Shown here piece after piece: positions 21,241-55,215 of a stretch of DNA of 55,215 nucleotides. The position numbers and the translations under genes were made by a program. How positions within the stretch are numbered: the first letter of the stretch is position 1; each line of letters opens with the position of its first letter. This DNA comes from a virus (Duplodnaviria; Caudoviricetes), in the IMG/VR virus record IMGVR_UViG_3300044699_000026, positions 1 through 55,215 of that record, one strand, 5' to 3'. The notes below the pieces were generated by a model. It saw only the letters and a program-made list of their open reading frames with translations, was not told where the DNA came from and ran no database searches.

Positions 21241-22878
21241 ATGGCTCGTCGTCGCTTAGCGGTGGTCCTCGGTGTAGTTGCCGCGGCCATGGTGATGACC
21301 ACCGCGTCTGCTCGTTCATCGATTCCCGGCCCGACAGGCGTGATCAACGGCTGCTACAAGAACGCGCGGCACCAGTCACGCACTTGTGGTGGGTCGACTC
21401 CACCGGGCAGTGCCCCGCCGGCTACACCGTCCTGAACTGGAACCAGACCGGTCCCAAGGGCGACAAGGGTGACCCCGGCACCAACGGAACCAACGGAACC
21501 AACGGAACCAACGGAACCGATGGACTCAACGGAACTGACGGTGCTGACGGGCGTGGAGTCCTCTCCGCGACGGTCGACTCCAACGGTGACCTGATTCTTA
21601 CCTACAGCGACAACACGACCGAGAACGCGGGTCACGTCGTCAGCGGCGGCAGCGGGATCGGGATCGCCTCGGCCACGATCGACGCCAATGGCGACCTCAT
21701 CATCACTTATACCGACAACTCCACCCAGAACGCGGGGCACGTCGTCGGTCCGACCGCCCCAAGGGTGACAAGGGCGATAAGGGCGACCCTGGGCCGTCAG
21801 GTGGCGCCGGCAGCGGTGCTGTCTATCAGATCGACTCCTTCGCAGGCTCAACCGACGACGACAAGCTGACCGCCTGCCTGGCCTTTGAGCAGAGCGAGAT
21901 GGCTGCCGGGCGGTATGGACCCTCCTGCCAGTTCGCCCGCCGTAGCTACTCACTGAGCCTCGCCAATCGGCAGTTCTTCACCGGAGAGAAGCTCATCGGT
22001 CCGGAGGGGTCAGGCCCGAAGGGGCTGGAGGTCAACTCCGGGCACCCGTCGAACTTCGGATCGTCCTCAACATCGGCGCCAACCCGTGGTTCACCGGCAA
22101 CGGGCTCGGCAACCTCTACTACATCTACATGTCGGACCTCGCGATCCAGTGCGGCGGTGCGTCCACGTCGCGGGTGTTCCAGATGTCGTCGGGCGGCACC
22201 GTCTACGCCGCCCAGTTCAACGCCTTCGGCGTGCTCGGCTGCTCCGGAATCTTCGGCAACAGCACCGAGAAGTTCCTCGCCACCCAGGTCGTCCCACCGG
22301 GCACTGGTCGGTGCAGGGCTTCCTTGACACCCCGTTCCACTTCGGCGGCTCCGACAACTCGTTCTGGACCCACGGATACGCCAACGTCGGCAGCGGCCAG
22401 ACCCCGGCCGGCCCCAAGTACGAGCTCATCCTGGACTACAAACAGCAAGACGACCATCGGCGATGTCTACCTGACGGCCGAGAACTCCAGCTGGCGCGGC
22501 CTGGACATCAAAGGCAACATCAACACCACCAACGTCTTCTACGGGCTGCGCGCTGAGGGGTACAACGCCTCCACTCCGTGCGCCGGCAGCGTCGTCAAGA
22601 TCGAGGGTGGCCTCAACACCTTCTACGAGCCGTGGGTGGCGTTCTCGATGAACGCACCATTGGCCGGCGAGAACGGCGTCATCGAGGTCACCGGAGGCGA
22701 CACGCTCATCGACCGCCGGTCTACGACCGCGGCAACACCGCAGCGACGGTGCCCTGGTCGCCGCTGACGGCGGCAAGGTCTACATCCGCGCGGCTGGGTC
22801 CGCCACAGCGATACCGTGCATGTGCGCTCGGGCGGCGGAACGCTCGGCCAGAACGACGGCTCATGGGTTACCCCGTAG
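21241..22878 (+). CDS. signal-peptide-bearing collagen-repeat protein with C-terminal putative beta-helix domain (frameshifted)
   Basis: MARRRLAVVLGVVAAAMVMTTASA signal; IPGPTGVINGCY...C...WNQ; G-X-Y run; duplicated SATVDSNGDLILTYSD module; C-terminal domain paralogous to the next gene. Confidence 0.7.
21477..21518 (+). repeat. in-frame 9-bp tandem repeat (GGAACCAAC)n encoding collagen GTN triplets
   Basis: ggcaccaac ggaaccaac ggaaccaac ggaaccaac ggaacc. Confidence 0.9.
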
Positions 22879-28937: not shown

Positions 28938-31900
28938 CTAATCGCCTACCGCCGAGGACATCCCCGGCGAGCGCGGCCACGTCTTGTAGACGGTCGTGTG
29001 CGGCGGTCGCCGCTGATGCCATATCGAGGTCGGCGCGGGTGGCATAGTAAGGTGCCCCGACGGCTGCTCATCAATAGCCGCCGAGCCAGACGCCCAGTCG
29101 GGGCGGGCACCAGCGACAGTATCAGCGAGGTCGTCAGTTTCCCTCGTCCAGGTTCCGGTCGAAGTAGATCGGCTCGGAAGCCTTGCGAAAGCTCCCGTAC
29201 TGGTAGCTGTCGTACGTGGCGGCAGCGGTAGGTCAAACTCGCACCACTGTCCGGCGTGCGCTTGCGCGAGCATCCGGTCGGGTCCGTCGCCGTGGAGGAC
29301 CACCTCGCCGGTCGGGCGGACGGTTACGGTCCTAACCTGTGAGCCGTCAGCCAGGACCCGCGCGATAGTCAGGTCGTCGTCAGGTAGCTGATGCAGCAGG
29401 AATGCGAGCGGTGCTTGGCGCGCGCTGTGCTTGCGGGATACGAAACGTAGGCCGCGTTCGCTGCCCCCACTTGAACGTGCAGCCGTCATGTGTCGTCTCC
29501 GTCCCCGATAACACACGGAGTTCTCCTACGAGGCATTTACAGTCGGCCTCGTGCCGGCGCAGCCCGCGCAGAATCCTTCGCCAGCACAGCCCTTAGCGCA
29601 GCACCAGTCTTCGTGTGGTAGGTGCCGGATGGCATCGAGTGCCTTCTGCTGTTCCTCGTATCGGTCCAGCAGCCACAGCCCGTCTGTGTATCGCATGTTC
29701 TCGAAGTCCTCGCGGAATGCGTCTATGTCTGGGTTCGAGGACGCTCATACGGTTCCCTGCCTTTCGGATGTGATTCCGGCGGCATCGGCGACAGCCAGTA
29801 GCTCGCTGGTGTCGGCACAGTAGGGCAGTGGCAGCCGTCTATGAGATCTTTGCCGCGCCATGCCGCCGCGAGTTTGTAGCGTTGGCTGCGCCTTCGACGT
29901 GCTCAGCCAGGGCGAACAGCATTGACGCTCTCCGCCGAGCGGTGTTACCTCGGCTAGCCGCCGGTAGTAGTCGGCGAGGTCGTGGAGTGTGGCGGCCGGG
30001 TCGGTGCTCACGGTGACCACCCGCGGCGGCTGCTCGGCGAAGTCCAGTGCGTCGCCGAACCCTTCCGCGTAGCCCGTGTAGTCCGGCGCGCCGCATTTTG
30101 CTGCCAGCGGTGGGATGGTGTCGGCTATCTGGTTGGCGACGTAGGCAGCGCCCACGAGCAGCGGCACCATCGGGCCACGGCGTGGAAGGAGCACACCGGA
30201 TAGTCGCCTTCCGGGTCAGCCTTCAGCGCCACGGCCTGGTTATCGCACGGCTTGTAGCTCGCCTTTGCGTGAGACTTCCTCGTGGCATTCGGCGGCGAGG
30301 TAAGTCATGTGTTGTCTCCGTCCCCGATAGCAGCGAGCCGCGACATGGGGGCGAGCGCATCCTCAATCCACGCCATGACTTCACGGTGCGGCATGTCGTA
30401 ACCGGCCTTTTGGATAGCGCGAACGCGATCAACACGTCCGTTAGGCTTGCACCTTGGCACGCTCAGCGCGCAGTTCACGCGGAATGCCTCATAGTGGCTG
30501 CTCAGGTTGTGGTTCTCGGCGGCGAGCGCGTCCGCTCCGCCTTGGCGATGGTCTCTAGCTCGCGTGACGAAGCCGCGTTTGTGCTAGCTCGGCGGTCAAC
30601 CGGGCAACTCAGCGAATAGGCGCTCAGTTTCCTTCCCGCACCGGTGCATGTGACAGCCAAGTCGCGAGGTCGCCTGGGTAATCCGTCCACTGGTCATAGT
30701 TGGTCTCCGTCCAGTCCCGAAGTCGGCAAGATGACCCACAAGGCGTCTCCGCGCCGATCCTCCCGACGACTTCTTTCCAGGTGAACACGCGGTCGAGGCC
30801 AGCGGGTACCAGCCGCCTCCGAGTGCTCTGCGGTATGTGCCGCCACGCTCTCACAGACACGGTCGAGCACCACATCGGTTCGGCGTCGAGTGCTGCGAGC
30901 GCCATCGGTCCGTGGATCATTGTTGTCTCTGTCCAGTGTCACGGGTGCTCCTTGGCGTTATGGATGGTGGCGCCGTTTGTGCCTGCTCTTGGAGGTCGTC
31001 CACCTGCCTACTCGCCGTCGATCGTGGTCCCTACACACCCAACGGAACTCATGCAACGCGGTGGCGCCGGCGGCTGCGAGGGGCGAACAACGACGGCGGT
31101 CATGTTTCGTCCCCGTCCCCGATAGCAGCGAGCACATCCTCGACGTATAGGCAGGCGTTCCCATGCCGTCGAGCCATACGGGGAGGTTCGGCGGACGTTG
31201 CACCTTGGCACGCTCAGACTCGTATCTCTGGCTAACGTCGTCGTATTCGCCTTCCCAGTACGCCGTTCAGCTTGTAGTGCTCGTTCGGCGCGTAGTTGTC
31301 GTTTTCGGCGGTCAACCGGGCAACCTCGGCGTTGCGTTCGTCAACGATGCGGCGCCCGTGATGATCGCGCCCTCGGTCAGCGTCAGGTCAGCGTCGCGAG
31401 CGAGCAGGTCAGGGCGGTTGTTGATGATCTCAATGAGCGCCTGAAATCGCGGACTGCCGCATCGCGCTGGGCGGTCAACCGGCAACCTCGGCTGCAGGCA
31501 TCCTGCTGTACGTAGTTGATGCCGCGCCAGTTGAGTACCGTCACGCGACGCAGCGAAGCATCCGGACCGATAACGACGGTTTCCGGTGCGCGTCCTGCTC
31601 TTTCGTCTCGGTCATTGTTCGTCTCCGTCCCGTGTGAGGCTGGTGAGGTCGCGTGTGTTGCCGGCCCACCGCCATAGGAGGGCGCGAGGGTGAGGGCTGC
31701 GGCGGCGGCGGTGAGGGTGGCGGCAAGGGTAGCCAACGTAGAGGCGGTCGGTCATAGTCGGTGCTCCGGTATCCGTCGACCCATTCGGCCATCGCGGTCT
31801 AGCAGGATGCGCGCGTATCCGTAGGCTGCCGGGTCGGCCGTCGAGAGCAGTGAGCGCACGGCGGCGCGACGAATTCGACCGGATGGTTCGCGACCCACCA

Positions 31901-38984: not shown

Positions 38985-39164
38985 TCATCCATAGTGCTTC
39001 TTCTCCATGTGCCGGTCGAGCGCCTCTTCGGCATGGGTCGTGTCCAGGAACGGCAGCGTCCGGTACCGGCAGACCTTGCACCGGCCGACCCAGCGCGGCC
39101 AGTTAGCCCACCAGCGCGTCCCATGTCGGTGCGACCACTCGATTCCGTCCTGCTCGACGGTCAT
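38985..39164 (-). CDS. small Zn-finger protein
   Basis: CKVC...HMEKKH. Confidence 0.55.
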   Translation of the reverse strand: MTVEQDGIEWSHRHGTRWWANWPRWVGRCKVCRYRTLPFLDTTHAEEALDRHMEKKHYG

Positions 39165-43022: not shown

Positions 43023-43024
43023 GG

Positions 43025-43321
43025 TCAGCCCTCGATCTCGTACAGATGCCAGACGAGCCCGAACAACCGGGGGCAGGTGCCCCGCCAGCGGGCGCCGGCA
43101 GGCACCGGATGACCGGTCCCGAACACCTGGAAGACGTGATCGACCAGCGGTTCGGCGTCGTTGTGCTCGGCCCAGAACTCCACGATCCATGAAGTAGCAC
43201 TGCCGTCGAGAGTAACGGCGGCGACCGCTATCGGGAGGCAGGAGCTCGAAAGTTGGATGCGGTGCGGCTTGTCGTCGATCGGGACCTCGTAGCGGTAGAC
43301 GGTGCGAAGGGGCATCATCAC
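43025..43321 (-). CDS. hypothetical phage protein
   Basis: TVYRYEVP...FWA...FQVFGTGHP...LVWHLYE, a widespread small phage family. Confidence 0.75.
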   Translation of the reverse strand: MMMPLRTVYRYEVPIDDKPHRIQLSSSCLPIAVAAVTLDGSATSWIVEFWAEHNDAEPLVDHVFQVFGTGHPVPAGARWRGTCPRLFGLVWHLYEIEG

Positions 43322-43806
43322 TCCTCCGGGTCGGTCTGACCGCCGTTGATCCGCAGTGCCGCGCTGACGTCGGGAAGCCGCTTGAGGACCTCACCGAGGA
43401 TGGCTTCGACGCGGTCGATCTCACGCTGAGTGTGCTCGCGCTCGAACTTCACCTGATCGCCGAAGCGGGCCTTGTCCGCCGCCAGGTTCTCCTCGCGGAC
43501 GGCCAGCTCGGTCTCGCGCTTGGCCGCGGCGAGGTCTTCGGCCTGGCGTTCGATGAGCAGGCCCACCTTGTGCTCGGTCTCGCGCTGGTCGCGCTTGTTC
43601 GTCTCGACCAGGCGGTCCTTCTCGATCTTCAGGTCGGTGACCTCGCGCTTGAGGCGGTCACGCTCAACGGTGGCATCCCGCTCCTCGCGCAGTGCCTTGA
43701 TCTCGGCACGGAGCTCGGCCAACTCGGTGACCGTTTCCTCGGTGGCCTTGAGCAGCTTGGCGGTGCGGTCGGCGTCGATGGCCGGCGCCGGCTTGAACAG
43801 TCCCAT
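43318..43806 (-). CDS. coiled-coil protein
   Basis: 162 aa, highly charged heptad pattern; GAAGGGG RBS. Confidence 0.75.
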   Translation of the reverse strand: MGLFKPAPAIDADRTAKLLKATEETVTELAELRAEIKALREERDATVERDRLKREVTDLKIEKDRLVETNKRDQRETEHKVGLLIERQAEDLAAAKRETELAVREENLAADKARFGDQVKFEREHTQREIDRVEAILGEVLKRLPDVSAALRINGGQTDPEE

Positions 43807-43955
43807 CAGGTTTCCCCTTCGTCGTCGTTGTGTTGGCCCGTCCCGAGTGATCCGTGGGTGGGTTCCAGGAACCACGTTCAGGACGGGCTACGGCACCCAC
43901 TCCTAGCCGCACCAGGCTGTCGACCCCTAGGAAGGTCACCTGGCAACAGTCTGCA

Positions 43956-43983
43956 ACCTTACCACTGGATCGGCCGAGCGCAA
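43956..43983 (-). promoter_or_regulatory. leftward promoter
   Basis: TTGCGC-16 bp-TAAGGT with TGn extension. Confidence 0.5.
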
Positions 43984-44009
43984 GCCCCGGAGAGGTCAAC
44001 CCATCTGTC

Positions 44010-44315
44010 CACCTCACTTGCCCATTTGCCAGTGGCAAGTGGGAAATGAGCCGTGAGCCGATCGTGGTTCCCACTTGCCAAAATGGCCGCGTGCCTTGCT
44101 CTAATGGGTATTTGGGCAAACGGGCCTGTTTCAGGGGCCTCTAGCCCAGTGTTTATAAGGGGTTCGCCATTTGGGAGGGGCCTCCGTCAAATGGAATGGC
44201 AAGTGGCTCTTTGTGAATTAGAGCATGCTGTAGCACTTAAGTTAACTTTAATTAGGTTTCATTAAGTTAACCTAAGTGAAGTTTCATTAGATTAACTAAG
44301 GTAAACTTAAGTACC
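44010..44315. other. putative replication origin (iteron-like repeats plus AT-rich element)
   Basis: CAYTTG(C)C / GGCAARTGG repeats in both orientations 44014-44208; very AT-rich palindromic tract 44234-44313; non-coding gap between divergent units. Confidence 0.6.
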
Positions 44316-44334
44316 GTTACCCTCCTTACGTCGG

Positions 44335-44364
44335 ATCGTACACTGCTGCATGGCTTGTTGTCAA
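44335..44364 (-). promoter_or_regulatory. strong housekeeping-sigma promoter firing into the AT-rich tract
   Basis: TTGACA-18 bp-TACGAT. Confidence 0.7.
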
Positions 44365-44553
44365 ATCGTTACGTTTTGGGAGTGCCGTAAGCCTTTCCGA
44401 AGCGGCGTTGCAGCCTAGTCCATGGCCGCCGCGGTTCGGGCGGCCTGATAGACGCCGCGCTCTCGGGGCGTCATTTGATGGCCAATTGATAGACAGATTC
44501 ATTCCGTCACCACGACTGATTCAATTGGTCGCCGAGCCGATGTTCGTTAGGTG

Positions 44554-44583
44554 TTCACGTCACCACGATCAGGCCGATAGGAT
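44554..44583 (+). promoter_or_regulatory. promoter for a probably leaderless transcript
   Basis: TTCACG-18 bp-TAGGAT, 7 nt before GTG 44591 with no RBS. Confidence 0.5.
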
Positions 44584-44590
44584 GATCGGC

Positions 44591-45208
44591 GTGGCGAAGC
44601 TGACCCATCCGTGCATCCGGTGCGGTAAGGACACGGAGGTCACGGTGCTTGTCTGCACCACGTGCTCTGTAAAGGTCGGCAATGCCGTGCTGAAGTTGCC
44701 GAGATACCGGCAGGGTCTCTATTCCTCCACCGGGCCGGCCAGGATCGGTGACGGGGTGAAGACCTCACGTCTGGCGCCTCAGTCCTCGCCGCCTAACCGG
44801 ACGTTCATCTTCGACCTGGCCCGCGAGATCGAATCCAGTGTCCGGTCCTGGGCGCACATCGCGGTCACCGGTAACCAGGGCGGCCGGCAGAGGCGCTGTA
44901 CCTTCGCCCAGGCCCACTCGACGGTCTGGGGTCACCATCACCGCTTCATGGCCCATCCGGTCCACGTCGAGGTATACGGCCGCGAGATGCTGGCTCTGGA
45001 GCGCCGGAGCCTGGTCGCGTTGCGGGCCGAGGCCCTCGTGCATCACCTTCCGGCACCGTGCCCGAACTGCGACACGCTCGGGCTCATCCGCCATGACGGG
45101 CAGGATCAGGTCCGTTGCTCGTTCTGCGGTGTCAGCTGGCAGGCCAACGAATATGATCGTCTCGTCCACGTCCTCGCCTGGGAACAGGAGAACCTGACCC
45201 ATGCCTAA
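44591..45208 (+). CDS. Zn-binding protein, candidate transcription regulator
   Basis: N-terminal CIRC/CTTC and C-terminal CPNC/CSFC pairs; paired with the downstream HTH gene. Confidence 0.7.
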   Translation: MAKLTHPCIRCGKDTEVTVLVCTTCSVKVGNAVLKLPRYRQGLYSSTGPARIGDGVKTSRLAPQSSPPNRTFIFDLAREIESSVRSWAHIAVTGNQGGRQRRCTFAQAHSTVWGHHHRFMAHPVHVEVYGREMLALERRSLVALRAEALVHHLPAPCPNCDTLGLIRHDGQDQVRCSFCGVSWQANEYDRLVHVLAWEQENLTHA

Positions 45209-45401
45209 GAGTCACTCCACGGTCCTGGACATCGACCAGGCGGCCACCATGGTTCACCGGTCGGTTCGGACGCTGCGCGGGTGGGTGAGCAAGGGCTGGC
45301 TGCCGGTCAGCAGGCAGGGCGGCAAGGGGCGTGGGGACCGGAGCAGGTTCCTGCTCCACGACGTGTTGGCGGCCGAGCGCCGGGCCAGGAACGGGAAATG
45401 A
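45201..45401 (+). CDS. helix-turn-helix DNA-binding protein (MerR/excisionase-like)
   Basis: LDIDQAATMVHRSVRTLRGWVSKGWL...RFLLHDV. Confidence 0.8.
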   Translation: MPKSHSTVLDIDQAATMVHRSVRTLRGWVSKGWLPVSRQGGKGRGDRSRFLLHDVLAAERRARNGK

Positions 45402-45407
45402 AGGGGT

Positions 45408-45551
45408 ATGAGCGACGACAAGGAAGCCGCCCGCCAGCAGTTGGTACAGGCGATGCACGAGGCAGCGCAGGCACGAGCTCGCGAGATGCAGGCCCGTGCC
45501 GCGCTACGGGCGGTCAACAAGAAGGCCGCGGAATCCAAGAAGGGGAAGTGA
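45408..45551 (+). CDS. small basic helical protein
   Basis: 47 aa; GAAGGGG RBS. Confidence 0.55.
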   Translation: MSDDKEAARQQLVQAMHEAAQARAREMQARAALRAVNKKAAESKKGK

Positions 45552-45555
45552 AGCC

Positions 45556-45714
45556 GTGAGCAAGCCGGCGAAGACGAAGACACCGAAGACCCAGCTCGGG
45601 CGGGCCGTGGTCATGCGTGACCGGGCCGAGAAGGGGACCAGCGAGAAGGTCTACCGGGCGGCGAACAAGCGGGTGCTGAAGCTGATTCGCCAGCACGACA
45701 AGCACGCGAAGTGA
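45556..45714 (+). CDS. small basic protein
   Basis: 52 aa Lys/Arg-rich; GAAGGGG upstream. Confidence 0.55.
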   Translation: MSKPAKTKTPKTQLGRAVVMRDRAEKGTSEKVYRAANKRVLKLIRQHDKHAK

Positions 45715-46002
45715 GTTCCGGCGGGTATATATCCGGTCCTGGGGAGGAGGTGCCGGTCGTTCTGTATCCGGAAGAATGCATCATCAGCCGGAGCGGGACG
45801 TGCGTTCGAACCGACCAGACCCACCTGGACGCTCGCGCCGGTAAAGGCCACGTGGTGATCATCCTGCCGGCCTGAGGTGACTGGAACAACTGGAGGCCCC
45901 TCGGATGACTTGGGAACAGCGGCTCATGTGGGTCGCCACTATGGTCTTCGGCCATGGCTACGCCTGGCTCATGATCATGATGCACGTTCTGCACAGGATC
46001 TG

Positions 46003-46034
46003 AACCTTGAATGAGCCGTCCATCATTCAAGGTT
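46003..46034. terminator. hairpin between convergent units
   Basis: Perfect 12-bp stem AACCTTGAATGA / TCATTCAAGGTT with 8-nt loop. Confidence 0.6.
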
Positions 46035-46051
46035 TGGGGCACATCCTTTAG

Positions 46052-46792
46052 TTATCGGGCTGGCTTCATGACGGTGTGGGCCGTCCGCTCGGTGACGTAG
46101 TTCTCCTCGGTCAGCCAGATCTGCTTCAGGTGGCTGCACCGGATTCCGGTGTGCACATGGACCGGGATGTTGAGCCTTCGGGCACGCATGCAGAAGGACA
46201 GGTCCTCGCTCACCAGTTCGCCGGTCTCGGGGTTCACGATTCGGTCGTAGGGTTCGGCCTTCCTCGTCCTGGTCATTCTGGTGAAGACCGAGCGGTGGAT
46301 CAGGATGCATGCCGAGCCGGTGCCGTCCACCCTGGTCAAGGTGTCCTGTTCGTAGTCCCAGCGGACCATGAAGCCGTGTTTGCCGTTGAGCTCGCCCCAG
46401 TCCCAGACGGTGGGTGCCGCGTAGGTGGCCGAGCCGTTGAGCCCGTCCGGACCCTGGTGGCGCCGGGTGAAGCACAGCGCGCCCATGACGGGTCGTCTCA
46501 CCGGATCGGCCGCTGCCATGAGGCGGGCCAGGGTGTCCGGCGCGAAGCCCATGTCGGTGTCGGTCCACCACAGCCAGTCGGCCCGGTGTTCGGCCAGGAA
46601 GGTGCGGACGGCCTGGTTGCGTGCCTCCACGAGCCCGTCCGTGCCGTACTCCTGGGCTATCCAGCCGGCGAAGCTCCGTGGCCCCATGAGGTCGTACTGG
46701 AGGACGCCGAGCACCGAGTGGTGCCAGGACGCGGCCACCTGTGAGTCATGCACGTAGGCCGCGACAGCCAGTTCGGCTTTGCTCTTCGGCAC
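46052..46792 (-). CDS. glycosyltransferase, GT-A fold
   Basis: ARNQAV, WLWWTDTDM (DxD), GTGSACILIHRSVF, SEDLSFC.RA, VHTG...H. Confidence 0.88.
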   Translation of the reverse strand: MPKSKAELAVAAYVHDSQVAASWHHSVLGVLQYDLMGPRSFAGWIAQEYGTDGLVEARNQAVRTFLAEHRADWLWWTDTDMGFAPDTLARLMAAADPVRRPVMGALCFTRRHQGPDGLNGSATYAAPTVWDWGELNGKHGFMVRWDYEQDTLTRVDGTGSACILIHRSVFTRMTRTRKAEPYDRIVNPETGELVSEDLSFCMRARRLNIPVHVHTGIRCSHLKQIWLTEENYVTERTAHTVMKPAR

Positions 46793-46936
46793 AATCAGTT
46801 CCCCTTCGAGATCGAATATCTACCGCAAAGAACGGAACCCCCGCGAGATCTAGGCTCCGGGGGTTCTCGTCCTCTGAGAGTGGTGACCAGTAACCGGGTC
46901 ACCGGAGGACAGCTTAACTGAAGGCTGCGTAGCTAT

Positions 46937-47146
46937 CTAGACCCAGCCCTCGGGCAGCAGGTTGGTGCCGCCGAGCTCCTTGGCCCGCTTGATGATCCAG
47001 CGCTTGACCTTCTCCGGGTCGCTGGCCCGACCGAAGGCCAGGATCGCGCGGGCGAGGTCGCGCTTGTTCCGGATCGGATAGCTACCGTCCGGCAGGGCCA
47101 GGCCCTTCTTGGCCAGCTGTCGCCGTTCTTCGGCGGTGAAGTCCAT
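46937..47146 (-). CDS. stand-alone ALPDGSYPI domain protein
   Basis: ERRQLAKKGLALPDGSYPIRNKRDLARAI...WIIKRAKELG. Confidence 0.75.
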   Translation of the reverse strand: MDFTAEERRQLAKKGLALPDGSYPIRNKRDLARAILAFGRASDPEKVKRWIIKRAKELGGTNLLPEGWV

Positions 47147-47174
47147 GGCCGAACGGTAGCCCAAAGCCGCGTAG

Positions 47175-47651
47175 CTACATAGCTTCGGGGACGGTGTCGA
47201 CCAGCGGGTCGCCGTAGCCGGCCGTTCGGAGCAGGTTCACAACGTCGGAGAAGAGCATCCGAACCGGCGGGAGGTAGGAGAGGGACGGGTCGGACATCTC
47301 CACGGCCAGCCTGACGAATGCCCAGCCAGGTAGGGCTGCCCACCATTGGCCGACCGATGAAGGTCCCTTGCCCTTCCGTTTCCAGACCAGGACTCCGATA
47401 TCGGCGTGCGCGTTGTAGCGTTCGGCCTCGGTTTCGTTGAGCCAGGAGAGGATGTCGGCGTCGGAGGCTTGTTCGGCCTGATGGCCGCCCTTCACCTCGA
47501 ATGCGAGCGCGGGCGTGCCGGTGATGTCGCCGAGGTCGAACGTGCCGTGAGTACGGCGAGCTTCCGCGGACGGCCAGCCGTTCATCGCGAGGTAGCGGGC
47601 TACGGGCCTCTCGGCGTCAGTGCCGATGTCCTTCGGCCGGCGTTTCGTCAT
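47175..47651 (-). CDS. Holliday junction resolvase (PD-(D/E)XK type)
   Basis: KDIGTDAER.VARYL...DLGDI.G...FEVK...ETE.ER.NA...GVLV.KR.G. Confidence 0.82.
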   Translation of the reverse strand: MTKRRPKDIGTDAERPVARYLAMNGWPSAEARRTHGTFDLGDITGTPALAFEVKGGHQAEQASDADILSWLNETEAERYNAHADIGVLVWKRKGKGPSSVGQWWAALPGWAFVRLAVEMSDPSLSYLPPVRMLFSDVVNLLRTAGYGDPLVDTVPEAM

Positions 47652-49479
47652 GCGTGTCAGCTTGCCAGACCCAGCACCGGTACTCGGCCCACTTCGACGT
47701 GTCGAACGGCCACATCTCCTTCAGCTGGACGCGGACCTGTGTCGGCAGGTAGCCGCGGGCCAGGCTCGTCGGCTCGCCGTTGCGCACGAGCTCATCGGCG
47801 TAGTACGCCCAACGGTGCCGGGGTCCATTGACCAGGATGCAGAGGTCGCGGTCCTCCGGGGTGGTCATGTGAGGACAACCTCGGTCTGACCCGAGAGGCG
47901 GGCATGACATCCGGCGCAGACTACAGTCGGATGTGACTGTCCGAGCGGCACCGAGTGGGCCGTGCCACCGCATTGCCAGACCGTCAGTTGGACCTCACTG
48001 CCGGTTGGCAAGTGTGTAGCCGTCAGTGCGTAGCGGATCGCGTGAGTCTTCCGACCAAGCGGGCCGGACGGCTTAGCCCAGGTAAGGGCTTTCGGCCTGA
48101 GCTTCACGATGCGCCAGTTTTTCCAGATGCTTTGCTCATACGGTGTCCGGTGCCCGCGCCAACCCCATCGGCCGTCGCCGTAGTAATGGCGCGAGAGCAA
48201 TTGTCGGCCCGTGAGCTCAAGCTCCTGTTGGGCTGTCCGTCCGTAGCTCACGACTGCACGGCTTCCCAGGGTTGCGTAGCTCCCATAGTGGCCGAGATCA
48301 GCTGCATCGCCTCGACGTACTCACGTCGCGGGTCGCGGGCCAGTTCGGCGTTCAGGTCCTTGAGAAGTAGCCGGCCGAAGCCCTGAGCTACGCTCGCGCT
48401 CACGTAGCCCTTGTAGAAGCTGCCGAGATGCCACAGTCCGATCAGGTGCCGGTCGTCCTGCCTGAGCGAGACCAGGATGCGACCGGAACCGTCGTCGGTG
48501 GCCACGAGCCTGACGCGCCATTGCGCGGCCTGAGCTCGACGCACGAGCGTCTGTGCCAGGCGTGGGAGCTCGTCAGCCTTCGGCGTGTAGAGGGTCATGC
48601 CTGGCCTTGGATCGTCTGCTGGATAGCTGCTCGCAGCTGGAATCCAGCTAGCTGAACGTCTTGCACCATTGCTGCGATGGCTTCGGCTCGGGTCCGGAAC
48701 TTCTTGCCGGGAAACCGGCCGGTGCGCCAGTGCTGCATGGACGGGAGCGAGCCTGTGCGGTAGACCATTCCGATGTGTTGGCCTGAGAGGTAGACGCCAT
48801 AGGCGTGTGGTTTGTCTAGTCGGATGAGCTTGACGTCGGCACTCATGCTTGAGCCTCCTGAGCTTCCTGAGCCCCGGCCGGTTCAGCTTCCTGAGCTTCG
48901 GCCAGCCGTTGAGCTTCCTGAGCCGCATGTAGGTCGCGGACCTGTTGCCGGATGTCCTCAGCCGGCATGAGCAGTCCGCTACTCAAGAGAAGCATGCCGA
49001 CCATGATGATGCCGACGTGCCCGGTCAGGAAGCAGAGCGCGCCGAGCGCGATGAGAGTGGCCTTACTCATGGCGTCACCGGGGAAATGAGGCGCACCGTC
49101 CGCTGTGGCGGACGATCACGTCGTCATCCATCCGGTAGAGCTCTACGATCAGTCCGTTGTCCGTGCGCCGGATGCTGATCAGGCCGCCGGATGTGGCGTC
49201 GCCGAAGTCATAGATCGATTCGTTAGGCCCGGCGTAGCTACTTGCCACGCCCTTGCGGATCGTTGGCTTGTTCACCAGTTACCCCCTCGAATCTGCGCCG
49301 TCTGGCCTGCGCGGTAGATCAGGTCAAGTAGTTCCGGTCGGCCTTCCTCGGGCACGCCCAGCAGGTCGGAGACAAGCTCCACGATTGCTCGCTTGTACTC
49401 GGGGTTGCCGTCCCATTCCTCGCCAGCGCCGTCCCCCAGCAGGTTGTACGCGGCTGTCAGGATGCGTAGGTCTCTCATG
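47648..49479 (-). other. run of about seven small hypothetical ORFs
   Basis: 47648-47868, 47865-48251, 48248-48598, 48595-48846, 48843-49070 (TM), 49075-49275, 49272-49479; mostly coupled stop/starts. Confidence 0.6.
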
Positions 49480-49508
49480 TCGTTCCCCTTCGGTGATTGG
49501 ATAGCTTC

Positions 49509-49913
49509 ATGCCGCGAGCCCCCAAGAAGTGCGCTCGTGTCGGCTGCGAAGCTCGTGTCGTCGGTGTCCCCTTCTGTGATCTCCATGTGCCGCGTCCTTC
49601 CGATCGCGGTAGCTGGAATCGTGGTAGCACGCGCGCCGGACGCAGGGATCGAGCTACCGTGCTCGCCAGCTATCCGACGTGCTACCTCCAGCTGCCCGGA
49701 TGCACCCTGGCCAGCACGGTCGATGAACATGTCGTGCCACTCAGCCAAGGCGGTAGCCTCACTGACTTGGCCAATCGGCGCGGTGCGTGTCATAGCTGCA
49801 ACCATCGCAAGCGGCATCGTGAGGCGTTAGCCGGCCGTGGCCTGGCACCTCCCTTCCGTGGGTTGGTTGACGTGCTCGTGTGGGCTGCTCACGAGCGGGA
49901 AGCGTCGGTGTAG
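49509..49913 (+). CDS. HNH endonuclease (packaging-associated type)
   Basis: MPRAPKKC...C...FC..H; CYLQLPGC...VDEHVVPLSQGG....N.RGACHSCNHRK. Confidence 0.85.
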   Translation: MPRAPKKCARVGCEARVVGVPFCDLHVPRPSDRGSWNRGSTRAGRRDRATVLASYPTCYLQLPGCTLASTVDEHVVPLSQGGSLTDLANRRGACHSCNHRKRHREALAGRGLAPPFRGLVDVLVWAAHEREASV

Positions 49914-51354
49914 CCGTCCTCTCGTTCCCAGTAGAGTCGCCTCGGGTCCGTAGGGTCTGGCTCAGGGTTGTCTGGCTCGTGATCGTTGCCCCACAGATAC
50001 GGCGCGGCGTCATGCTGCCAACCGTCGTCCGTCCAGACGATCTCGTAACCACAGCCGCAATGCGCGCGGATGCGATCCGGTGGGCCGTCGTCGGAGTAGC
50101 TGGTGAAGATCACGTCGCGATCCTCCGCAATGGCGATCTTCACCGTGCCGTGTGCCGTTGTCATGACTGACTCTGCCAGTGCCTCGAACCCTTCCGTTAG
50201 CTCGTAGTCGTCCTCCTTGTCGTCCGGTGCGTCGATGGTCAGTGTGAAATACCGCGTGCTCATGCCGTCATCCCCTCGGTGTCCTCCCAGACCTTCACGT
50301 AGCACACGGTGTAGTCGTCCCAGGCCGGATGGCCGCTCTCGCCGTGGTACAGAAACACGTCGGAGTCGCGCACGTCCCCGGTGTCCCTGCTCCCCGCTCG
50401 GATTGAGGTACACGTACCGTGGCGGTAGGTTCGGTGCGGTCACCTTGAAGCCCACCGCCCAGCCGTTAGTCCAAGGCTCGAACACGGCACCCTCGTAGGA
50501 CGTGACCGTGTTGACCTCTAGCGCGCTAATTGCCGACACCCCTTCCGCGTCGTCGGTCGCGACCTCTGGCCAGCGTTCCAACGCCATGCGTAGCGCGGTT
50601 TCTAGTGCGTATATGCGGAACTCATCCAGACTTCCGTCCGTTGCGCTGTCTCGCGCGATGTTCGCGTACATCTGCATTTCGTCGGTAGTTGAGCTCATGT
50701 CTCAGTCCTCTTCCTCTGGAAACTCGGGGACGCCTGCCCACTCCAGTAGCTCAACGTCGCCGGGGTCGATGTGGTCGGCCAGCGATTGCAGTTCGTATAG
50801 CTCGTCCCAGCTGATTCGTTCGGCGCGAATCTCGCTGCGTAGGTATTCCAGTCGTGCCTTGACGAGTTCTTGCTCCCATGTGCTCATGTTCGGTTCCCTT
50901 CGATTGAGTAGCTGCGTAGCTACTCTGCTAGGACGTAATAGGCCACCGCGCCGAGCAGTGCGTCAAGATCCTCGCGTCGGCCATCTGCGGCATCGGCTGC
51001 GTATTGGTCGGCGGTGTACCAATCGCCGTTCTCGTTGGCCAGGTCGTAAAGCTCGGCTAGCTTCTCGGCGCGCGCCTGCTCGTCATCCTTGACGCGGTGG
51101 TATGTCTCGATCAGATCGTCCAGCGGCTTAGCTTCGCTCATGTTCGGTTCCCCTTCGGTGTCGTATAGCTAATGTTACCACACCTTACCACGCACGGTAA
51201 GCTGCGGAGCTGGGTCAATAGCGGTAAGCGTGTCATCCGCCACCGGTCGGTCGAGGTAGCTGTCAAGCTCTTCGGTCAACGACGGTGGGCAGTCCAGCGC
51301 ATACCACAGTTTGCGGACGAGCTTGTCGATCTTCTGGTTGCGGGTCTGGGTCAT
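49889..51354 (-). other. cluster of small acidic early proteins
   Basis: ORFs ~49889-50262, ~50259-50698, 50702-50887, 50920-51141, 51175-51354; three preceded by AAGGG(G)AACCGAACATG. Confidence 0.65.
51175..51191 (-). promoter_or_regulatory. 17-bp direct-repeat operator / extended -10
   Basis: TTACCACACCTTACCAC; - strand reads TGTGG-TAACAT upstream of gene 51141. Confidence 0.65.
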
Positions 51355-51546
51355 GTTCGGTTCCCTTTCAGTGTTGTGTGGCTGCGTAGCTACTTAGCTA
51401 GCGCTGGTCTCGGATGCCTGAGCCGTTCCATAGCTCTCCATGACCTTCCGGTGGTGTGATCACCACTCGCTCGATCTCGTCCCGCGTTACGAGCGTCCGG
51501 CGCGATTCGCGCAACGTCGCTCCGGTTGCTTTCGCTCTAGTTGGCA

Positions 51547-52126
51547 TCAGGCCAGCCGTCCGTCTGCCAGGAACTCGCGCCCGTTGGCCTCGATGTCCTC
51601 ACGTAGGGCGTCCTCTGAGTACATGTATTCGTACTCGGCTACGCCCGCGTGGATAGCGTCACGTAGAGCCTCATCAAGTGCGCCGAAGATTCTGCGATCT
51701 AGTGCCCACTCGCTTTCGTCGTCGTAAACGGTGAACGTACTCGATTCCGTTTCGACTGCGAGTGAGCGTCCGTGAGTGTTGGGGTTGCGTAAGTTCATGC
51801 GGACCACGTTGGGTGGCCAGGGTAAAGCTGGCGCGGTCTCCGGCGTGAGGTATCCGGCTACTTCGATTGTGTGGCGGTCAACATCCCATTCCGTGACCTC
51901 CAGCCCGTCGATGCCAGGGAAGTCACCTTCGCCGAAGGTGTCCCAACCGGGCGCGGCGAGCCTTTCCGCGAGTGTGTAGATTAATTGTCTCTTGGATTCG
52001 GTCAGTGTCGAAGCTGTCCCACCATTGCGCGCGTAGCTCGCGGTAATTGTCGATTGCCTCGGCTTGTGTCTCGTCATCTAGCTCATCGAGTCGGTACAGG
52101 TCGCGTGTCGTGGTTTCGACTCTCAT
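51547..52126 (-). CDS. hypothetical early protein (frameshifted)
   Basis: LYRLDELDDETQAEAID...EYEYMYSEDALREDIEANGREFLADG, a widespread phage family. Confidence 0.7.
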
Positions 52127-52596
52127 GCCTTGACCTCTTCCAATTCAGCTGAGTAGCTGTTAGCAGCCTTGTCCATGGCGCGCGCAGCTGCACGAGCCGA
52201 ACTGTGCTCGCCGAAGTCTCCGATGGTGTCGATGCTGTCGCTGTCGGCGTCCCATACGCGCACGGAATAGGTGCGTGTGTAGTCGTCCCAGTCGCTACGC
52301 TCGCTCGTCGTGAAGTAGAGCCGATGGCCAACGATGCGCCAGTGCGACAGGATGCGAGACGTAAAGAACCGTATGGAGTCGGCGTCAAAGAAGTGCGTGT
52401 CCGACACCTTCGGAATGTCGCTCGGCTCGTACACGTCATCGGTGCGCACGTAGGCGAACCCGTCCGACGCGCGGAGTCGCCACAGCTGGCGGTACTCGTC
52501 GGCCGCCTCTTCGGAATCAACTACCGTGCGGATACGCACGCGCATCCGATTGCTGTCGGTGTAGTGTCCCGTTGCTACCGTGATCTTGTTTCGCAT
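52123..52596 (-). CDS. hypothetical early protein
   Basis: HFFDADSIRFF.SRI...YFTTSE...R.YSVR motif. Confidence 0.75.
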   Translation of the reverse strand: MRNKITVATGHYTDSNRMRVRIRTVVDSEEAADEYRQLWRLRASDGFAYVRTDDVYEPSDIPKVSDTHFFDADSIRFFTSRILSHWRIVGHRLYFTTSERSDWDDYTRTYSVRVWDADSDSIDTIGDFGEHSSARAAARAMDKAANSYSAELEEVKA

Positions 52597-52598
52597 AG

Positions 52599-52923
52599 CT
52601 AGTCCCCTTCCTTTGGGTCCCAGTAAGTCAAGGCTTCGCGCGAGCCCCCGAGCGTGCTACCGCAACCCTCGCAGCGCTGCCAGCTGAATGTCAGCCGTTC
52701 GCACTCGCAATCGGCTTCACCCGTCCATTGCCCGTTAGTGATGTTCGGGCACTCGGAGTCGTGCTCATTGGCCATGAGACCAGCTGTCAGTTCCCCTGGC
52801 CCGTCGATGAGACTCAAACGGTTCGCGGTCTGGTGGGTCTTCGGTCTCTTCGCGCACGCCATGGTGCGTTAGGTAGCAGTCGATGCACACCCAAAGGGTT
52901 TGGTAGTCGCGCGTAGTCGTCAT
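52599..52923 (-). CDS. hypothetical Cys-rich early protein (frameshifted)
   Basis: WVCIDC...FSWQRCEGCGSTLGGSR. Confidence 0.65.
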
Positions 52924-52925
52924 AG

Positions 52926-53297
52926 CTAGCTGTCCTCCGCTTCCCATACGTAAAGCCGCGAGTGCTCTGCTACGTCCAGCGGAAAAGTCTCCGACACGAG
53001 CGTGCGGAGAGTGTTTTCCCATAGATCAGGCTTGCCGCTGTGCAGCGGTGCCGACGCCCGTTCGGGATCGAAGTTCCGTGCGAGGTTAAGCAGGTCCTCG
53101 GAGAGAACGTGCGCCTTCCACGCGGCCTTGTAGTCCTCCGACTCCGCGTAGAGTCGTGCCGACTCTTCGGCCTGCTCGGAGTCCTCCAGTAGCTCGTTGT
53201 GGATCACCACAGCAGCGTCCGTGTAGGTCTCGAAACCCTCATCCGTCTCGTCTAGGTCCGGTCCGTATCCGGCGAGTCCATGTGCTACGTAGATCAT
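52926..53297 (-). CDS. acidic hypothetical early protein
   Basis: 123 aa Glu/Asp-rich; GAAGGGG RBS. Confidence 0.7.
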   Translation of the reverse strand: MIYVAHGLAGYGPDLDETDEGFETYTDAAVVIHNELLEDSEQAEESARLYAESEDYKAAWKAHVLSEDLLNLARNFDPERASAPLHSGKPDLWENTLRTLVSETFPLDVAEHSRLYVWEAEDS

Positions 53298-53318
53298 GCT
53301 TGTGTCCCCTTCGGTGTT

Positions 53319-53349
53319 GTGTAGCTGTGTAGCTGTGTAGCTGTGTAGC
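53319..53349. repeat. intergenic tandem repeat (GTGTAGCT)x3-4
   Basis: gtgtagct gtgtagct gtgtagct gtgtagc. Confidence 0.85.
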
Positions 53350-53360
53350 GTGTGTGTGAG

Positions 53361-54037
53361 CTAGCTGACGGCCACTCCGGTTAACAGTTCCTTGCGAAGC
53401 AGTTTGCGCAGCGAGCGGGTAAGCAATGTGTCCACCTTGCCGCGTTGCGCTGCGCTTAGGATCATGGCCATGATGACGTCAGGGAAGCGGTAGCCAGCGG
53501 CCTTGATTGCGCGATAGGCCAGGCTGGCATGGAAGTAGTCTTCCCCTACGTGGCCGGCTAGGCAGTCCGTTCCCATGCCGAACTTGCAGCCCGGCAATCT
53601 CCGCCGCTGTTCTCCCATGCGGACACGATGCGCTCGGGCGTGATCCCCTTGACGAATCTGTCGATGGCCTTGCGCGTGGCAGCATTGCGCTGGTCCTCAG
53701 CCGCAACCGCGTCGACGTCCACGCCAGCTATGACGAGACCGTCGCGGACCGTCATGCCGTCCATGTATGGCGTCGTGCCGGCATACCATCGACCGCGCTC
53801 GGAATGGATGCGCAGCGGCCCGTAGCTGTTCATACGATCCTTTGTGGTCACAGTGAACCATCCGCCCGTCTCATAGCTGACTGACCCGTCCGGGTGAAAG
53901 GTGAGTATGTCGGTGTCGTGCAACCGGACCGCGATAGCTTCACCACGCCGTTCCGCATAGGTGTTGTGCGTGAGCTTGCGCCGATCTTTGTTCCGGCCCG
54001 TCAGCTTCGCGTTTAGGCTTTCGTAAGTCTCGCTCAT
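53361..54037 (-). CDS. hypothetical early protein (frameshifted)
   Basis: RKLTHNT...VRLHDTDI...TGGWFTVTTKDRMN. Confidence 0.7.
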
Positions 54038-54634
54038 GTTGTTTGGTTCCCCTTCGGTGTGCGCTTGCGTTCGGTCACGATGTTGAATGCGAGAATCCGC
54101 AGTCCGGCTAGTGCCAGGCTTGCGCCAGCGATTGCCAGCGCGTCCGCGATTAGTGCGATCATCGTGCGTACTCCACGAACGTCGACGACTTGACCTCATC
54201 GACAAGCTCGGATACGGGCCAGAATGCTTCGAAACCAGAATCCAGCGTCACCCGTAGAGTTGGTCACGGATATCGTCATCGGGCCCGGCAAAGTTTCCGT
54301 TGCGGTCCCCGATGCTGCGTGCCGTTCCTTGCACAACGTCATCGTTCACCAATCGTGCGACATGCTGGCCTTTGTGTGCCATCGTTACGATGGTTGCGAG
54401 TGCCGTGACCTCGCTTGCCGAGAGCGTGCGCATAGTGCTTCCCCTTCCGTGGTGGCCTGTCCTGGCCATGGCGTGCCATCCTGCGAGAGAATGGCCACCA
54501 GGGTTAGGCAGTGTCACTACTGGCGCCAGAAATAGAACCCAACGAGCCAACGGGTGACCCAATATGCCAGCGTCGGATCCGTGCTCCACTGGACTAGAGC
54601 GCTCATGTCGGTCCCCTTCCGTGCGCTTGGCCTG

Positions 54635-54991
54635 TCAGTCCTTGCGGATGGAGTAGGACACGAGTCGCGAACCGTTGACCGTTAGTGTGCTGTGATCATG
54701 GACAGCGCGGGACAAGGTCCTGGCAACGGTCGCCGCTCCATCGGGTCCGGACAGCAGACTGGTGAAGCGTCGGCCATCCGAGTAGACCGTGTAGAGCACC
54801 AGCGTGCGGTCCGTGGTGTCCGTGGTGTCCACTGTGACGGCCCGGAAGTCGTGGCCGTTAGCGTCATGGTGCCAGCCGTCGTGCCCCACTGGGCGAAGGC
54901 ATAGACCGTAGGCGGCAATGTCTGCCTTGCATGGTGAGCCTTGGCCGTAGTCAGCCGGCGCTGGTGCCTTGCGGTGTTCGCCTAGTGACAT
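54635..54991 (-). CDS. hypothetical protein, first gene of the leftward early operon
   Basis: CLRPVGHDGWH motif; GAAGGGG RBS. Confidence 0.6.
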   Translation of the reverse strand: MSLGEHRKAPAPADYGQGSPCKADIAAYGLCLRPVGHDGWHHDANGHDFRAVTVDTTDTTDRTLVLYTVYSDGRRFTSLLSGPDGAATVARTLSRAVHDHSTLTVNGSRLVSYSIRKD

Positions 54992-55031
54992 GGTGTCGAT
55001 CCCCTTCCGTGGTGGCCTGATGAGTGCAACG

Positions 55032-55080
55032 TTACCACACATTGCCACGCTGCGGTGCCTGTCAAGCGTGGCAATGTGAA
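55032..55080 (-). promoter_or_regulatory. early promoter region with direct-repeat operator and inverted half-site
   Basis: TTACCACACATTGCCAC at 55032-55048 (- strand TGTGG-TAACGT); TTGACA on - strand at 55060-55065; inverted GTGGCAATGTG at 55068. Confidence 0.65.
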
Positions 55081-55112
55081 TCGTTACCGTTCCGTGACCT
55101 AGCCGGCGGGCT

Positions 55113-55155
55113 CGCCTCCAAGATCATCAGCGCACGCCTCCAAGATCATCAGCGC
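55113..55155. repeat. 21-bp direct repeat near the right end
   Basis: CGCCTCCAAGATCATCAGCGC at 55113-55133 and 55135-55155. Confidence 0.9.
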
Positions 55156-55215
55156 CAGGGTGGGTGATCATGAAAGACCGGCGGGGCACCCTACCCCCGC
55201 CCTAAGGGTGGACGG

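Follow-up and report, generated by a model that had tools for sequence, protein, structure and literature searches.

Excess of the palindrome AGCT and stop-embedded junction repeats in a leftward gene block of an uncultured soil actinobacteriophage

We consider a stretch of viral DNA, the whole of IMG/VR record IMGVR_UViG_3300044699_000026 (referred to below as the window), and within it a block of small leftward genes in the right arm where the pentamer TAGCT, as read on the + strand, is strongly over-represented. The source record (55,215 bases, classed as linear, with a completeness estimate of 73%) is that of an uncultured soil actinobacteriophage. Its large terminase has 53-57% identity to the terminases of Mycobacterium abscessus prophages and of Cluster F mycobacteriophages, and a tblastn search with this protein gives 855 hits, all below 60% identity. 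The other recognised proteins are the portal, the major capsid protein, a primase-helicase, a Cas4-type exonuclease, a RusA-like resolvase and two glycosyltransferases. The genes run rightward from 0.3 to 28 kb and leftward from 29 to 44 kb, followed by a short rightward block (44.4-45.9 kb) that carries two DNA-binding candidates and by a leftward arm that reads from about 55.0 to 46.0 kb. In the AGCT-rich part of this arm known families are rare, and family searches leave nearly all of the approximately 19 genes as ORFans. Coding periodicity and a coherent grammar of genes and leaders are present in the block; no sigma-70-type promoters or terminators stand above chance within it, and no tRNA genes were found as a source of TAGCT.

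The window holds 49 copies of TAGCT on the + strand, 39 of which lie within 46930-53935 and 10 across the other 48 kb. On the coding strand of the block the same word reads AGCTA. Dinucleotide-preserving shuffles (n = 1000) give 5.1 +/- 2.2 copies of AGCTA with a maximum of 15, against the 39 observed, and an order-2 Markov model gives 13.5 +/- 3.6, with 0 of 1000 simulations reaching 39. With an order-3 model the expectation is 27.7 +/- 5.2 (z 2.2), and 25 of 1000 simulations reach the observed number. Within the gene models, 25-26 AGCTA are seen compared with 10.9-11.6 in synonymous-codon shuffles, none of which (0/1000 and 0/400) reaches the observed value. In a scan of all 5-mers in 7-kb windows, with every third window plus the last one compared, the log-likelihood ratio is 44.9 for TAGCT in the last window and no higher than 17.2 for any other word. 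The density rises rightward, with 3, 4, 4, 6, 7, 6 and 8 copies of TAGCT per kb from 47 to 53 kb, while the other 48 kb have 10 (+) and 8 (-) copies versus about 29 each from composition (hand calculation). Copies in the opposite orientation number 16 in the block, 10 of them being palindromic TAGCTA and 6 non-palindromic. An earlier note on this DNA, made from the letters alone, had counted about 39 TAGCT in 7 kb where roughly 5 were expected, far fewer per kb elsewhere, and few non-palindromic copies in the opposite orientation. These counts all hold, and the excess survives both dinucleotide and codon shuffles, which is the opposite of the outcome that the note had named as refuting. The observation is thus confirmed as real and statistically strong. 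The Markov and dinucleotide shuffles, the AGCT-N4-AGCT pairs, the composition ratios, the 5-mer scan and the frame call from GC content at third codon positions (GC3) are independent of the gene models.

The core unit is the palindrome AGCT and not the pentamer TAGCT. AGCT occurs 83 times in the block, which is 3.39 times the composition value (1.16 times in 1-44.1 kb), about 12 per kb and roughly 58 copies above expectation, and its maximal-order z-score of 6.9-9.7 is the most extreme among all 4-mers. The nested palindromes TAGCTA and GTAGCTAC are found 10 and 4 times in the block. The one-base neighbours of AGCT stand at 0.77-1.08 times composition, so AGCT has been added and not converted from a neighbour; conversion with a signature like that of very-short-patch (VSP) repair is ruled out by the same ratios. 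General palindrome enrichment is ruled out too, with CTAG, GTAC and TGCA under-represented as in the rest of the genome; CGCG, GGCC and GCGC are mildly raised and AGCT alone is strongly raised. The avoidance of TpA is relaxed in the block (TA as well as CTA/TAG counts are roughly 1.7-2 times those elsewhere), and for this reason A is the commonest base after AGCT on the coding strand. What had been called a strand-polarised pentamer should be described as an excess of an AGCT-core palindrome together with stop-embedded junction repeats.

When counted on the coding strand, AGCTA and TAGCT stand at 8:1 in the left arm, 9:0 in the middle block (29-38 kb) and 39:16 in the AGCT-rich block, which is therefore the least polarised of the genome. 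Re-encoding the proteins of the block with the codon usage of the other genes gives 5.2 AGCTA and 1.4 TAGCT versus the 25 and 7 observed. Since both orientations are about five-fold above this recoding null, the polarity is a reading-frame effect on a symmetric word. The strand polarity claimed in the earlier note is not upheld: the coding strand carries AGCTA in every block, the enrichment applies to both orientations, and the core is palindromic. The apparent strand polarity comes from the reading frames.

Twenty-five of the 39 copies are in genes, evenly spread along them and with no bias of the sites toward gene ends. According to the annotation, the in-gene frames are 12 AGC/TAY, 6 xAG/CTA and 8 xxA/GCT/A (a slash marks a codon boundary), and the annotation-free local GC3 periodicity places the frames at 13/13/13. 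The choice of codon depends on its context. Ser before TAx is encoded by AGC in 11 of 13 cases versus 43 of 143 elsewhere in the block (p = 1.7e-4), and Ala after an xxA codon is GCT in 24 of 53 cases versus 25 of 194 (p = 1e-6). In the genes of 1-44 kb the same contexts give AGC in 3 of 18 and GCT in 11 of 116, so neither effect is there. The codons AGC, GCT and CTA are all raised in the block. For Leu, CTA is used after AG in 6 of 25 cases versus 24 of 163 in other contexts (Fisher p = 0.25; 30 CTA codons in total), and this is the weakest link because CTA is raised in general. The other gene blocks lie at their own codon-shuffle expectation (z -1.8 to 1.7), compared with a z of about 5 for the AGCT-rich block. 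The in-gene excess is made at the nucleotide level by context-dependent codon choice, plus the proteins' own dipeptide content. The earlier note had equated the in-gene copies with rare CTA Leu codons, which is correct for the 6 copies in the xAG/CTA frame and incorrect for the other 20 of the 25-26; the site at 52079/52080, taken there for a CTA codon, lies just upstream of a start codon instead. An equal use of CTA outside AG contexts had been named as evidence against a code, and the result goes part of the way in that direction (CTA generally raised, 6 of 30 after xAG, p = 0.25). The broader idea that the excess is laid over the coding sequence is supported: the shuffles are survived, all three frames are filled, and the context-dependent codon choice is found in this block only. 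One of the genes, that of a small membrane protein (48843-49070), contains a 9- and 24-nt repeat at 48849-48926 that encodes an (AQEAQ)-type C-terminal tail and supplies 4-5 of the AGCT sites; the 226-aa open reading frame (ORF) overlapping it is probably mis-started.

We turn to the gene junctions. Of the 39 copies, 14 either fall in the 406 nt not covered by gene models or straddle a gene end. In the order of transcription (- strand), the junction module opens with a TAG stop within (G)TAGCTA(C); AGCTAC units at 8-nt spacing and a CA-rich spacer come next, and the leader CACCGAAGGGGAAC is followed after about 5-7 nt by the ATG. The TAG stops are followed by CT in 6 of 8 cases (p = 3.5e-7). 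The spaced pair AGCT-N4-AGCT is present 8 times in the block versus 0.94 +/- 0.91 expected (maximum of 6 in 500 simulations), and the 176 sites elsewhere in the genome include only one such pair; as AGCT is its own complement, each pair can also fold into a small hairpin, the best being the 8-bp stem at 50906-50925. The longer 14-mer GTAGCTACGCAGCC, with up to 3 mismatches allowed, matches the - strand of the block at 8 sites; the 5 matches elsewhere are at chance level. All of the between-gene forms listed in the earlier note were found, namely GCYGCGTAGCTA at 46923, 47165, 50911 and 51380, the TAG-CT-ATG joints at 52594-52601 and 52921-52928, and the 8-bp tandem array, with its 4.6 copies at 53318-53355. 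The unit at 50906..50925 sits upstream of the leader and ATG of gene 50702-50887, and the tandem array is followed by the leader and ATG of gene 52926-53297. The coordinates are collected in Table 1.

Table 1. Positions of the AGCT-rich block, its junction elements and the related sites elsewhere in the window
Feature	Position	Strand	Remarks
AGCT/AGCTA-rich block	46930..53939	-	about 19 small leftward genes; 83 AGCT, 39 AGCTA and 16 TAGCT on the coding strand
TAGATAGCTACGCAGCC	46923..46939	-	follows the stop of gene 46937-47164; marks the block's left edge
AGCTATGTAGCTACGCGGCT	47165..47186	-	TAG stop of the RusA-like gene in GTAGCTAC; an AGCT-N4-AGCT pair
GTAGCTACGCCGGG	49228..49241	-	long-motif copy with 3 mismatches; near the 5' end of gene model 49075-49275
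GAGTAGCT-ACGC-AGCTACTC	50906..50925	-	TAG stop of gene 50920-51141 in GTAGCTAC; predicted 8-bp stem with a 4-nt loop
Intercistronic unit TAGCTAAGTAGCTACGCAGCC	51380..51401	-	upstream TAG stop in the first TAGCTA; exact GTAGCTACGCAGCC at 51380-51393
Stop/start joint TAGCTATG	52594..52601	-	
Stop/start joint TAGCTATG	52921..52928	-	
Tandem array (CACAGCTA)	53318..53365	-	period 8, 4.6 copies; preceded by the upstream gene stop TAGCTC
Leader CACCGAAGGGGAAC	49482, 51147, 51360, 53303, 54046, 54438, 54610, 54998 (49482..55011)	-	up to 2 mismatches
Second small cluster	29204..30589	-	6 TAGCT (+) in 1386 bp, no opposite copy; AGCT not enriched
Only GTAGCTACG copy outside the block	21941..21950	-	gap between tail-region ORFs; about 0.3 expected (hand calculation), not significant

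The leader CACCGAAGGGGAAC is a Shine-Dalgarno-type leader. Its 8 copies with up to 2 mismatches, 3 of them exact, are all on the - strand between 49.4 and 55.0 kb. Seven of the eight precede an ATG at about 3-12 nt, mostly 5-7, and in the eighth (49482) the ATG follows after 3 nt and falls within gene model 49272-49817. Degenerate copies are found at 46798, 50887 and 52596, and with up to 3 mismatches there are 23 matches versus 7.15 +/- 2.57 in shuffles. No copies with up to 2 mismatches are present at gene starts left of 49.4 kb, and a scan of viral contigs for the leader pattern gave only single chance matches. A second leader, ATCGGGGACGGAGACRACAC-ATGAC, is seen on the - strand at 29488-29512 and 30305-30332, before two genes of the ORFan stretch at 29-30.6 kb, and the phage seems to use several leader families.

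The leader module resembles a known arrangement of mycobacteriophages. According to the part of the Cluster K paper drawn on here (PMC3203893), the start-associated sequence (SAS) of these phages is an asymmetric sequence of about 13 bp with 11-19 copies, typically located 3-7 bp upstream of mostly ATG starts, in one orientation and in the non-structural right part of the genome, and both DNA-binding and translational roles are discussed for it. About half of the SASs have an extended start-associated sequence (ESAS) directly upstream, made up of imperfect 17-bp inverted repeats that are separated by 4-13 bp (PMC3203893). The leader CACCGAAGGGGAAC is comparable in copy number, position before the ATG, orientation and confinement to the right arm; in both cases some upstream stops are embedded in the element, and at some sites a second, dyad-capable element is directly upstream (PMC3203893). 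The sequence is different, however, from the SAS consensus 5'-GGGATAGGAGCCC, and instead of the ESAS there are AGCTAC/GTAGCTAC units at 8-nt spacing, with stems of 4-8 bp and 4-nt loops, at 4-5 junctions (PMC3203893). With different sequences and an upstream element that is built differently, the leader module is in our view an analogue of SAS/ESAS and not a member. The same part of the Cluster K paper reports no enrichment of a sub-word within coding sequence, unlike the in-gene AGCT excess here (PMC3203893).

The TAGCT excess is thus the + strand view of two superimposed features, a punctuation module between cistrons and a diffuse AGCT excess within genes. Tentatively, and with less than even confidence, we take the AGCT words to be sites that are read on double-stranded DNA by a reader of short palindromes. 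Reading on duplex DNA is favoured because the pressure acts at the nucleotide level on a symmetric word, the junction grammar uses this same word, and the sense RNA folds no more strongly than elsewhere. One candidate for the reader is a dimeric DNA-binding protein whose sites would be strong at the gene junctions and weak, though many, within the genes; another is a methyltransferase- or nuclease-like enzyme that reads 4 bp. Such a reader may handle the delayed part of the operon as one entity, for example to silence it at a set time, to act as a roadblock or to mark it, and the leader CACCGAAGGGGAAC would act in translation initiation. A more specific proposal, which we rate as speculative and rather improbable, is that the dense (T)AGCT(A) array and the stop-embedded GTAGCTAC mark an early/accessory operon, and that a palindrome reader switches, silences or processes the block.

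A number of observations weigh against reading by a palindrome-binding factor. Given the 4-mer counts, the excess of the pentamer is only mild (27.7 expected, z 2.2). The base after AGCT on the sense strand is A at 25 of 69 sites versus the 25% expected (p = 0.03), and T before AGCT shows no matching preference (p = 0.47). The second small cluster in mid-genome is polar, with 6 sense copies to 0 antisense. In the promoter-proximal 1.2 kb (54001-55215) there are 0 TAGCT and 2 AGCT, where 6.7 and 14.3 would be present at the density of the block. The tetranucleotide z-signature of the block correlates with those of four other blocks at r 0.09-0.24, as compared with 0.48-0.68 among those blocks. 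No methyltransferase, restriction-type nuclease or repressor, and no other enzyme cognate to AGCT, was recognised among the approximately 70 proteins scanned, in a record that is estimated to be 73% complete and may lack some. The only DNA-binding candidates are at 44408-45208 and 45201-45401, and nothing links either one to AGCT. The promoter-like regions (55.03-55.08 kb and 44.2-44.4 kb) carry other repeats and no AGCT, which sets the arrangement apart from true operator/stoperator systems. Finally, the evidence is a single contig, at 3-5x depth, whose block is present in one public run as short contigs at a depth of about 1-5, with five single-base indel differences between the window and the run contigs (49079, 51981, 52816, 53589 and 55177), and searches of phage records and contig collections found no relatives of the right arm in which conservation could be tested.

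The asymmetry in the flanking bases leads to the question of whether the word is read on the transcript. The A excess confined to the sense strand, together with the 6:0 cluster, is a hint of a strand-specific component, and CAGCT on the sense strand is enriched as well (27 vs 13.2 expected). In this alternative, AGCUA(C) in the polycistronic early transcript is a binding or cleavage word for an RNA-binding protein or an endoribonuclease of the phage or the host, and at the junctions the GUAGCU-N4-AGCUAC hairpins, the CA-rich spacer and the leader are elements for processing, stability or translation coupling. The strongest copies occupy precisely the space that separates a stop codon from the ribosome-binding leader after it, the 8 AGCT-N4-AGCT pairs (0.94 expected) are hairpin-capable, and the lack of internal promoters and terminators above chance fits one long transcript. 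Among 9 folded junction segments, z ranges from -0.1 to -2.9; 4 of them fold better than all but 1-6 of 200 shuffles, and the 8-bp stem at 50906-50925 belongs with this evidence. The other 5 folds are unremarkable, however, and copies of GTAGCTACGC pair with different partners in each junction fold, so RNA structure is a weak candidate for the cause of the junction units. Over the block, local folding of the sense strand has a mean z of -0.30 versus -0.46 and -0.68 in other blocks; this argues against RNA structure as the cause of the in-gene sites, which we rule out, and the sense RNA is no more structured than shuffles. The palindromic core, and the enrichment of sense TAGCT by the same factor as AGCTA over the recoding null, also speak against a message-level signal, which we consider unlikely.

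The foreign signature raises a different alternative, that the block is a mosaic module derived from an AGCT-rich, TpA-tolerant lineage or host, in which the in-gene excess is a functionless legacy of composition and only the intercistronic repeats are regulatory. The correlation stays low when the words TAG, CTA and AGCT are left out of the comparison (r -0.03 to 0.13). The GC content of the block is 0.60 versus 0.64, its TA dinucleotides are about 1.7 times more frequent, and in blocks of 3.5 kb the right 13 kb stands apart in signature. Consistent with such an origin are also the ORFan character of most genes, the symmetry of the enrichment and a pentamer count that is near expectation given the 4-mer counts. 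Control genomes provide evidence on both sides. For 313 control windows of 7 kb, taken from 147 loci, the median AGCT ratio is 1.03 and the highest is 2.33, so that none reaches 3.39, and in 166 high-GC loci (1.83 Mb, some of them duplicates) the maximum is 9 TAGCT/AGCTA per 3 kb versus 23 in the block. No control locus comes near the pentamer density, and a donor with this composition would itself be an unexplained outlier. The same control windows show, however, that codon structure alone can lift TCGA to more than 5 times composition, and the ratio of 3.4 is therefore unusual for AGCT and not for 4-mers in general. A preference for Ser AGC over TCN before T would not come from a single-step mutation bias. 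The lineage-specific leader CACCGAAGGGGAAC is not confined to the AGCT-rich part but occurs beyond it as well, which points to long co-residence, and the junction motifs reuse the same word. Taken as an account of the in-gene sites, this legacy is possible although doubtful. Among the control loci, one viral contig (L176, 18309 nt, GC 0.66) has zero AGCT and TCGA at about 5 times composition; its AGCT avoidance is probably due to AGCT-specific restriction in the host.

The earlier note had proposed an oriented code near one genome end, for example for the coating of first-injected or last-packaged DNA or for translocase guidance; Chi-/KOPS-like guidance of a translocase or exonuclease would be of this kind. 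The right arm carries TAGCT on its + strand and the left arm on its - strand, a geometry compatible with entry from either end, and the density climbs toward the right. The orientation flips, however, with gene direction, as coding constraints predict, the word is scarce in the other 48 kb, and the last 1.2 kb is without TAGCT, even though the leader CACCGAAGGGGAAC is present in this promoter-proximal part where AGCT is scarce. The second cluster lies in mid-genome at 29.2-30.6 kb, in another ORFan stretch (P = 8e-7 before a correction of about 11-fold). With the 1.2-kb gap and the mid-genome cluster, the feature does not depend on the contig end, and it does not extend over the operon as a whole. 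The placement near a genome end is thus not sustained, and a code of this kind is very unlikely.

There was also a concern that the block might be an artefact of assembly, i.e., a chimeric contig of two phages, as the low depth, the five indel differences and the sharp break in signature could suggest. All 30 depth bins over 38000-55215 are covered by contigs of the run, 44 of 51 contigs are at least 99% alike, no joints are reported, and the left boundary (46677-47200) is bridged by one run contig with zero differences; the supporting run may be the window's own sample and hence not independent. With the coding periodicity and the coherent gene and leader grammar in addition, a chimera is hardly credible. 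The indel differences suggest frame errors in the window. Two split ORFs would be joined by the differences at 52816 and 53589. One is 52599-52923, which encodes a Cys-rich protein, lies downstream of the joint at 52921-52928 and is probably a single gene split by the 1-nt indel at 52816; the other is 53361-54037. The gene models are approximate because they come from a single low-depth contig with indel differences, and the claim is limited to what one low-coverage contig without relatives can carry. Megablast and blastn searches of the right arm against 50,697 phage records gave nothing, or one 96-nt match at chance level. No relatives came out of protein-anchored scans of viral, metagenome and genome contigs that used a 269-aa ORF, the primase-helicase and the DUF7447 protein, and with the glycosyltransferase as an anchor 53 viral and 80 metagenome loci of up to 55% identity were obtained, none with the excess. 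The same analysis in relatives had been suggested in the earlier note, and three distant, fuller relatives are without the excess. The terminase has closer relatives in L119 (88% nucleotide identity) and L120 (80%), whose contigs cover the left arm only. The contig of L119 stops no more than about 190 nt away from the left end of the window. In L120 (1-2119), rightward lysis-like genes lie left of the terminase region, where the window has its contig end, which implies that the genome ends or the gene order differ between close relatives.

A comparison with other repeat systems of actinophages is useful at this point. The stoperators of Cluster A phages, as described in the part of the paper drawn on here (PMC6550527), are 13-14 bp sites without dyad symmetry, with 20-30 per genome on both arms, syn-oriented and acting on elongation; their consensus equals the operator at the early lytic promoter, and they are bound by the immunity repressor. 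Similar to these, the block has many short sites, mostly away from promoters, in the transcribed, leftward right arm of an L5-like architecture (PMC6550527). In contrast to stoperators, its long motif has 5-6 copies, the core is palindromic and the frequent word is 4-5 bp, and the promoter-like region at the right end carries a different 14-bp inverted repeat and no AGCT (PMC6550527). In the Streptomyces phage phiC31 (AJ006589), CTCACGTGAG is found 15 times in 41.5 kb, with an ordinary AGCT content (134 copies), no TAGCTA and no GTAGCTAC; the phiC31 repeat is centred on CTCACGTGAG, and it is ruled out as a relative of GTAGCTAC. The two phages are alike as actinophages in which an exact palindromic core is repeated many times, and differ in that the phiC31 repeat is a long palindrome of 16-18 bp with no sub-word excess in the coding sequence. 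We take the palindromes of the phiC31 early region to be those named 'CIR' and to be bound by the repressor.

Short words that are selected over coding sequence and read by proteins are well known, with Chi, KOPS, the GATC clusters of SeqA/Dam and the GGAG sites of T4 RegB being examples of 4-8 nt. The polarity of Chi and KOPS follows replication or DNA ends, genome-wide, and guidance words are usually over-represented in the whole genome. Here the polarity follows the gene strand in all blocks and the word is local; its scarcity outside the block makes a Chi- or KOPS-like reading a poor fit. Clusters of GATC extend over tens to hundreds of bp, whereas the AGCT block spans 7 kb, and RegB sites are in the Shine-Dalgarno regions of early mRNAs. 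AGCT is also the specificity of AluI and as such a target of type II restriction-modification. The block shares with such targets the 4-bp palindrome and differs from them in that the word is enriched and not avoided. Phage genomes are usually scanned for avoided palindromes, which reflect escape from restriction; in a narrow literature search we came across no earlier example of a 4-bp palindrome that is enriched throughout the coding sequence of a single phage gene block.

Several features near the block deserve mention. At the right end, a perfect 14-bp inverted repeat flanks TTGACA (55038-55078) upstream of TGGTAACGT, which is extended -10-like, and a perfect 22-bp tandem repeat lies 60 nt further out (55113-55155). 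These repeats together with TGGTAACGT are probably the early promoter/operator of the leftward operon. Between the divergent gene blocks, AT-rich repeats with periods of 10, 25 and 35 are located at 44235-44312 and 44335-44364, and the best sigma-70-like promoter of the right arm (TTGACA-18-TACGAT, - strand) adjoins them. This region (44235-44364), beside a 266-aa DNA-binding protein and a MerR/excisionase-like helix-turn-helix protein, is probably a regulatory or origin region. A 2OG-Fe(II) oxygenase adjoins one glycosyltransferase at 33987-35401, and the second glycosyltransferase (46052-46792) borders the AGCT-rich block; homologues of the latter, with up to 55% identity, are common in soil viral contigs.

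What does the block mean for the biology of this phage? On a conservative reading, it is a second, sequence-unrelated example of start-associated punctuation of the SAS/ESAS type, in an uncultured actinophage lineage. The intragenic AGCT component would be notable if functional, and is so far the unexplained part beside junction repeats of the SAS type. The finding shows that, where all genes of a block have one direction, a symmetric word may be mistaken for a strand-polarised code, and the tests of Ser AGC before T and of Ala GCT after A are a simple way to separate pressure at the nucleotide level from codon usage elsewhere. If the array does mark the operon for a palindrome reader, a restriction-type word would be used positively instead of being avoided. 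If AGCT is selected across reading frames, it would point to a so far unrecognised means by which a group of genes can be addressed in the DNA or in the RNA.

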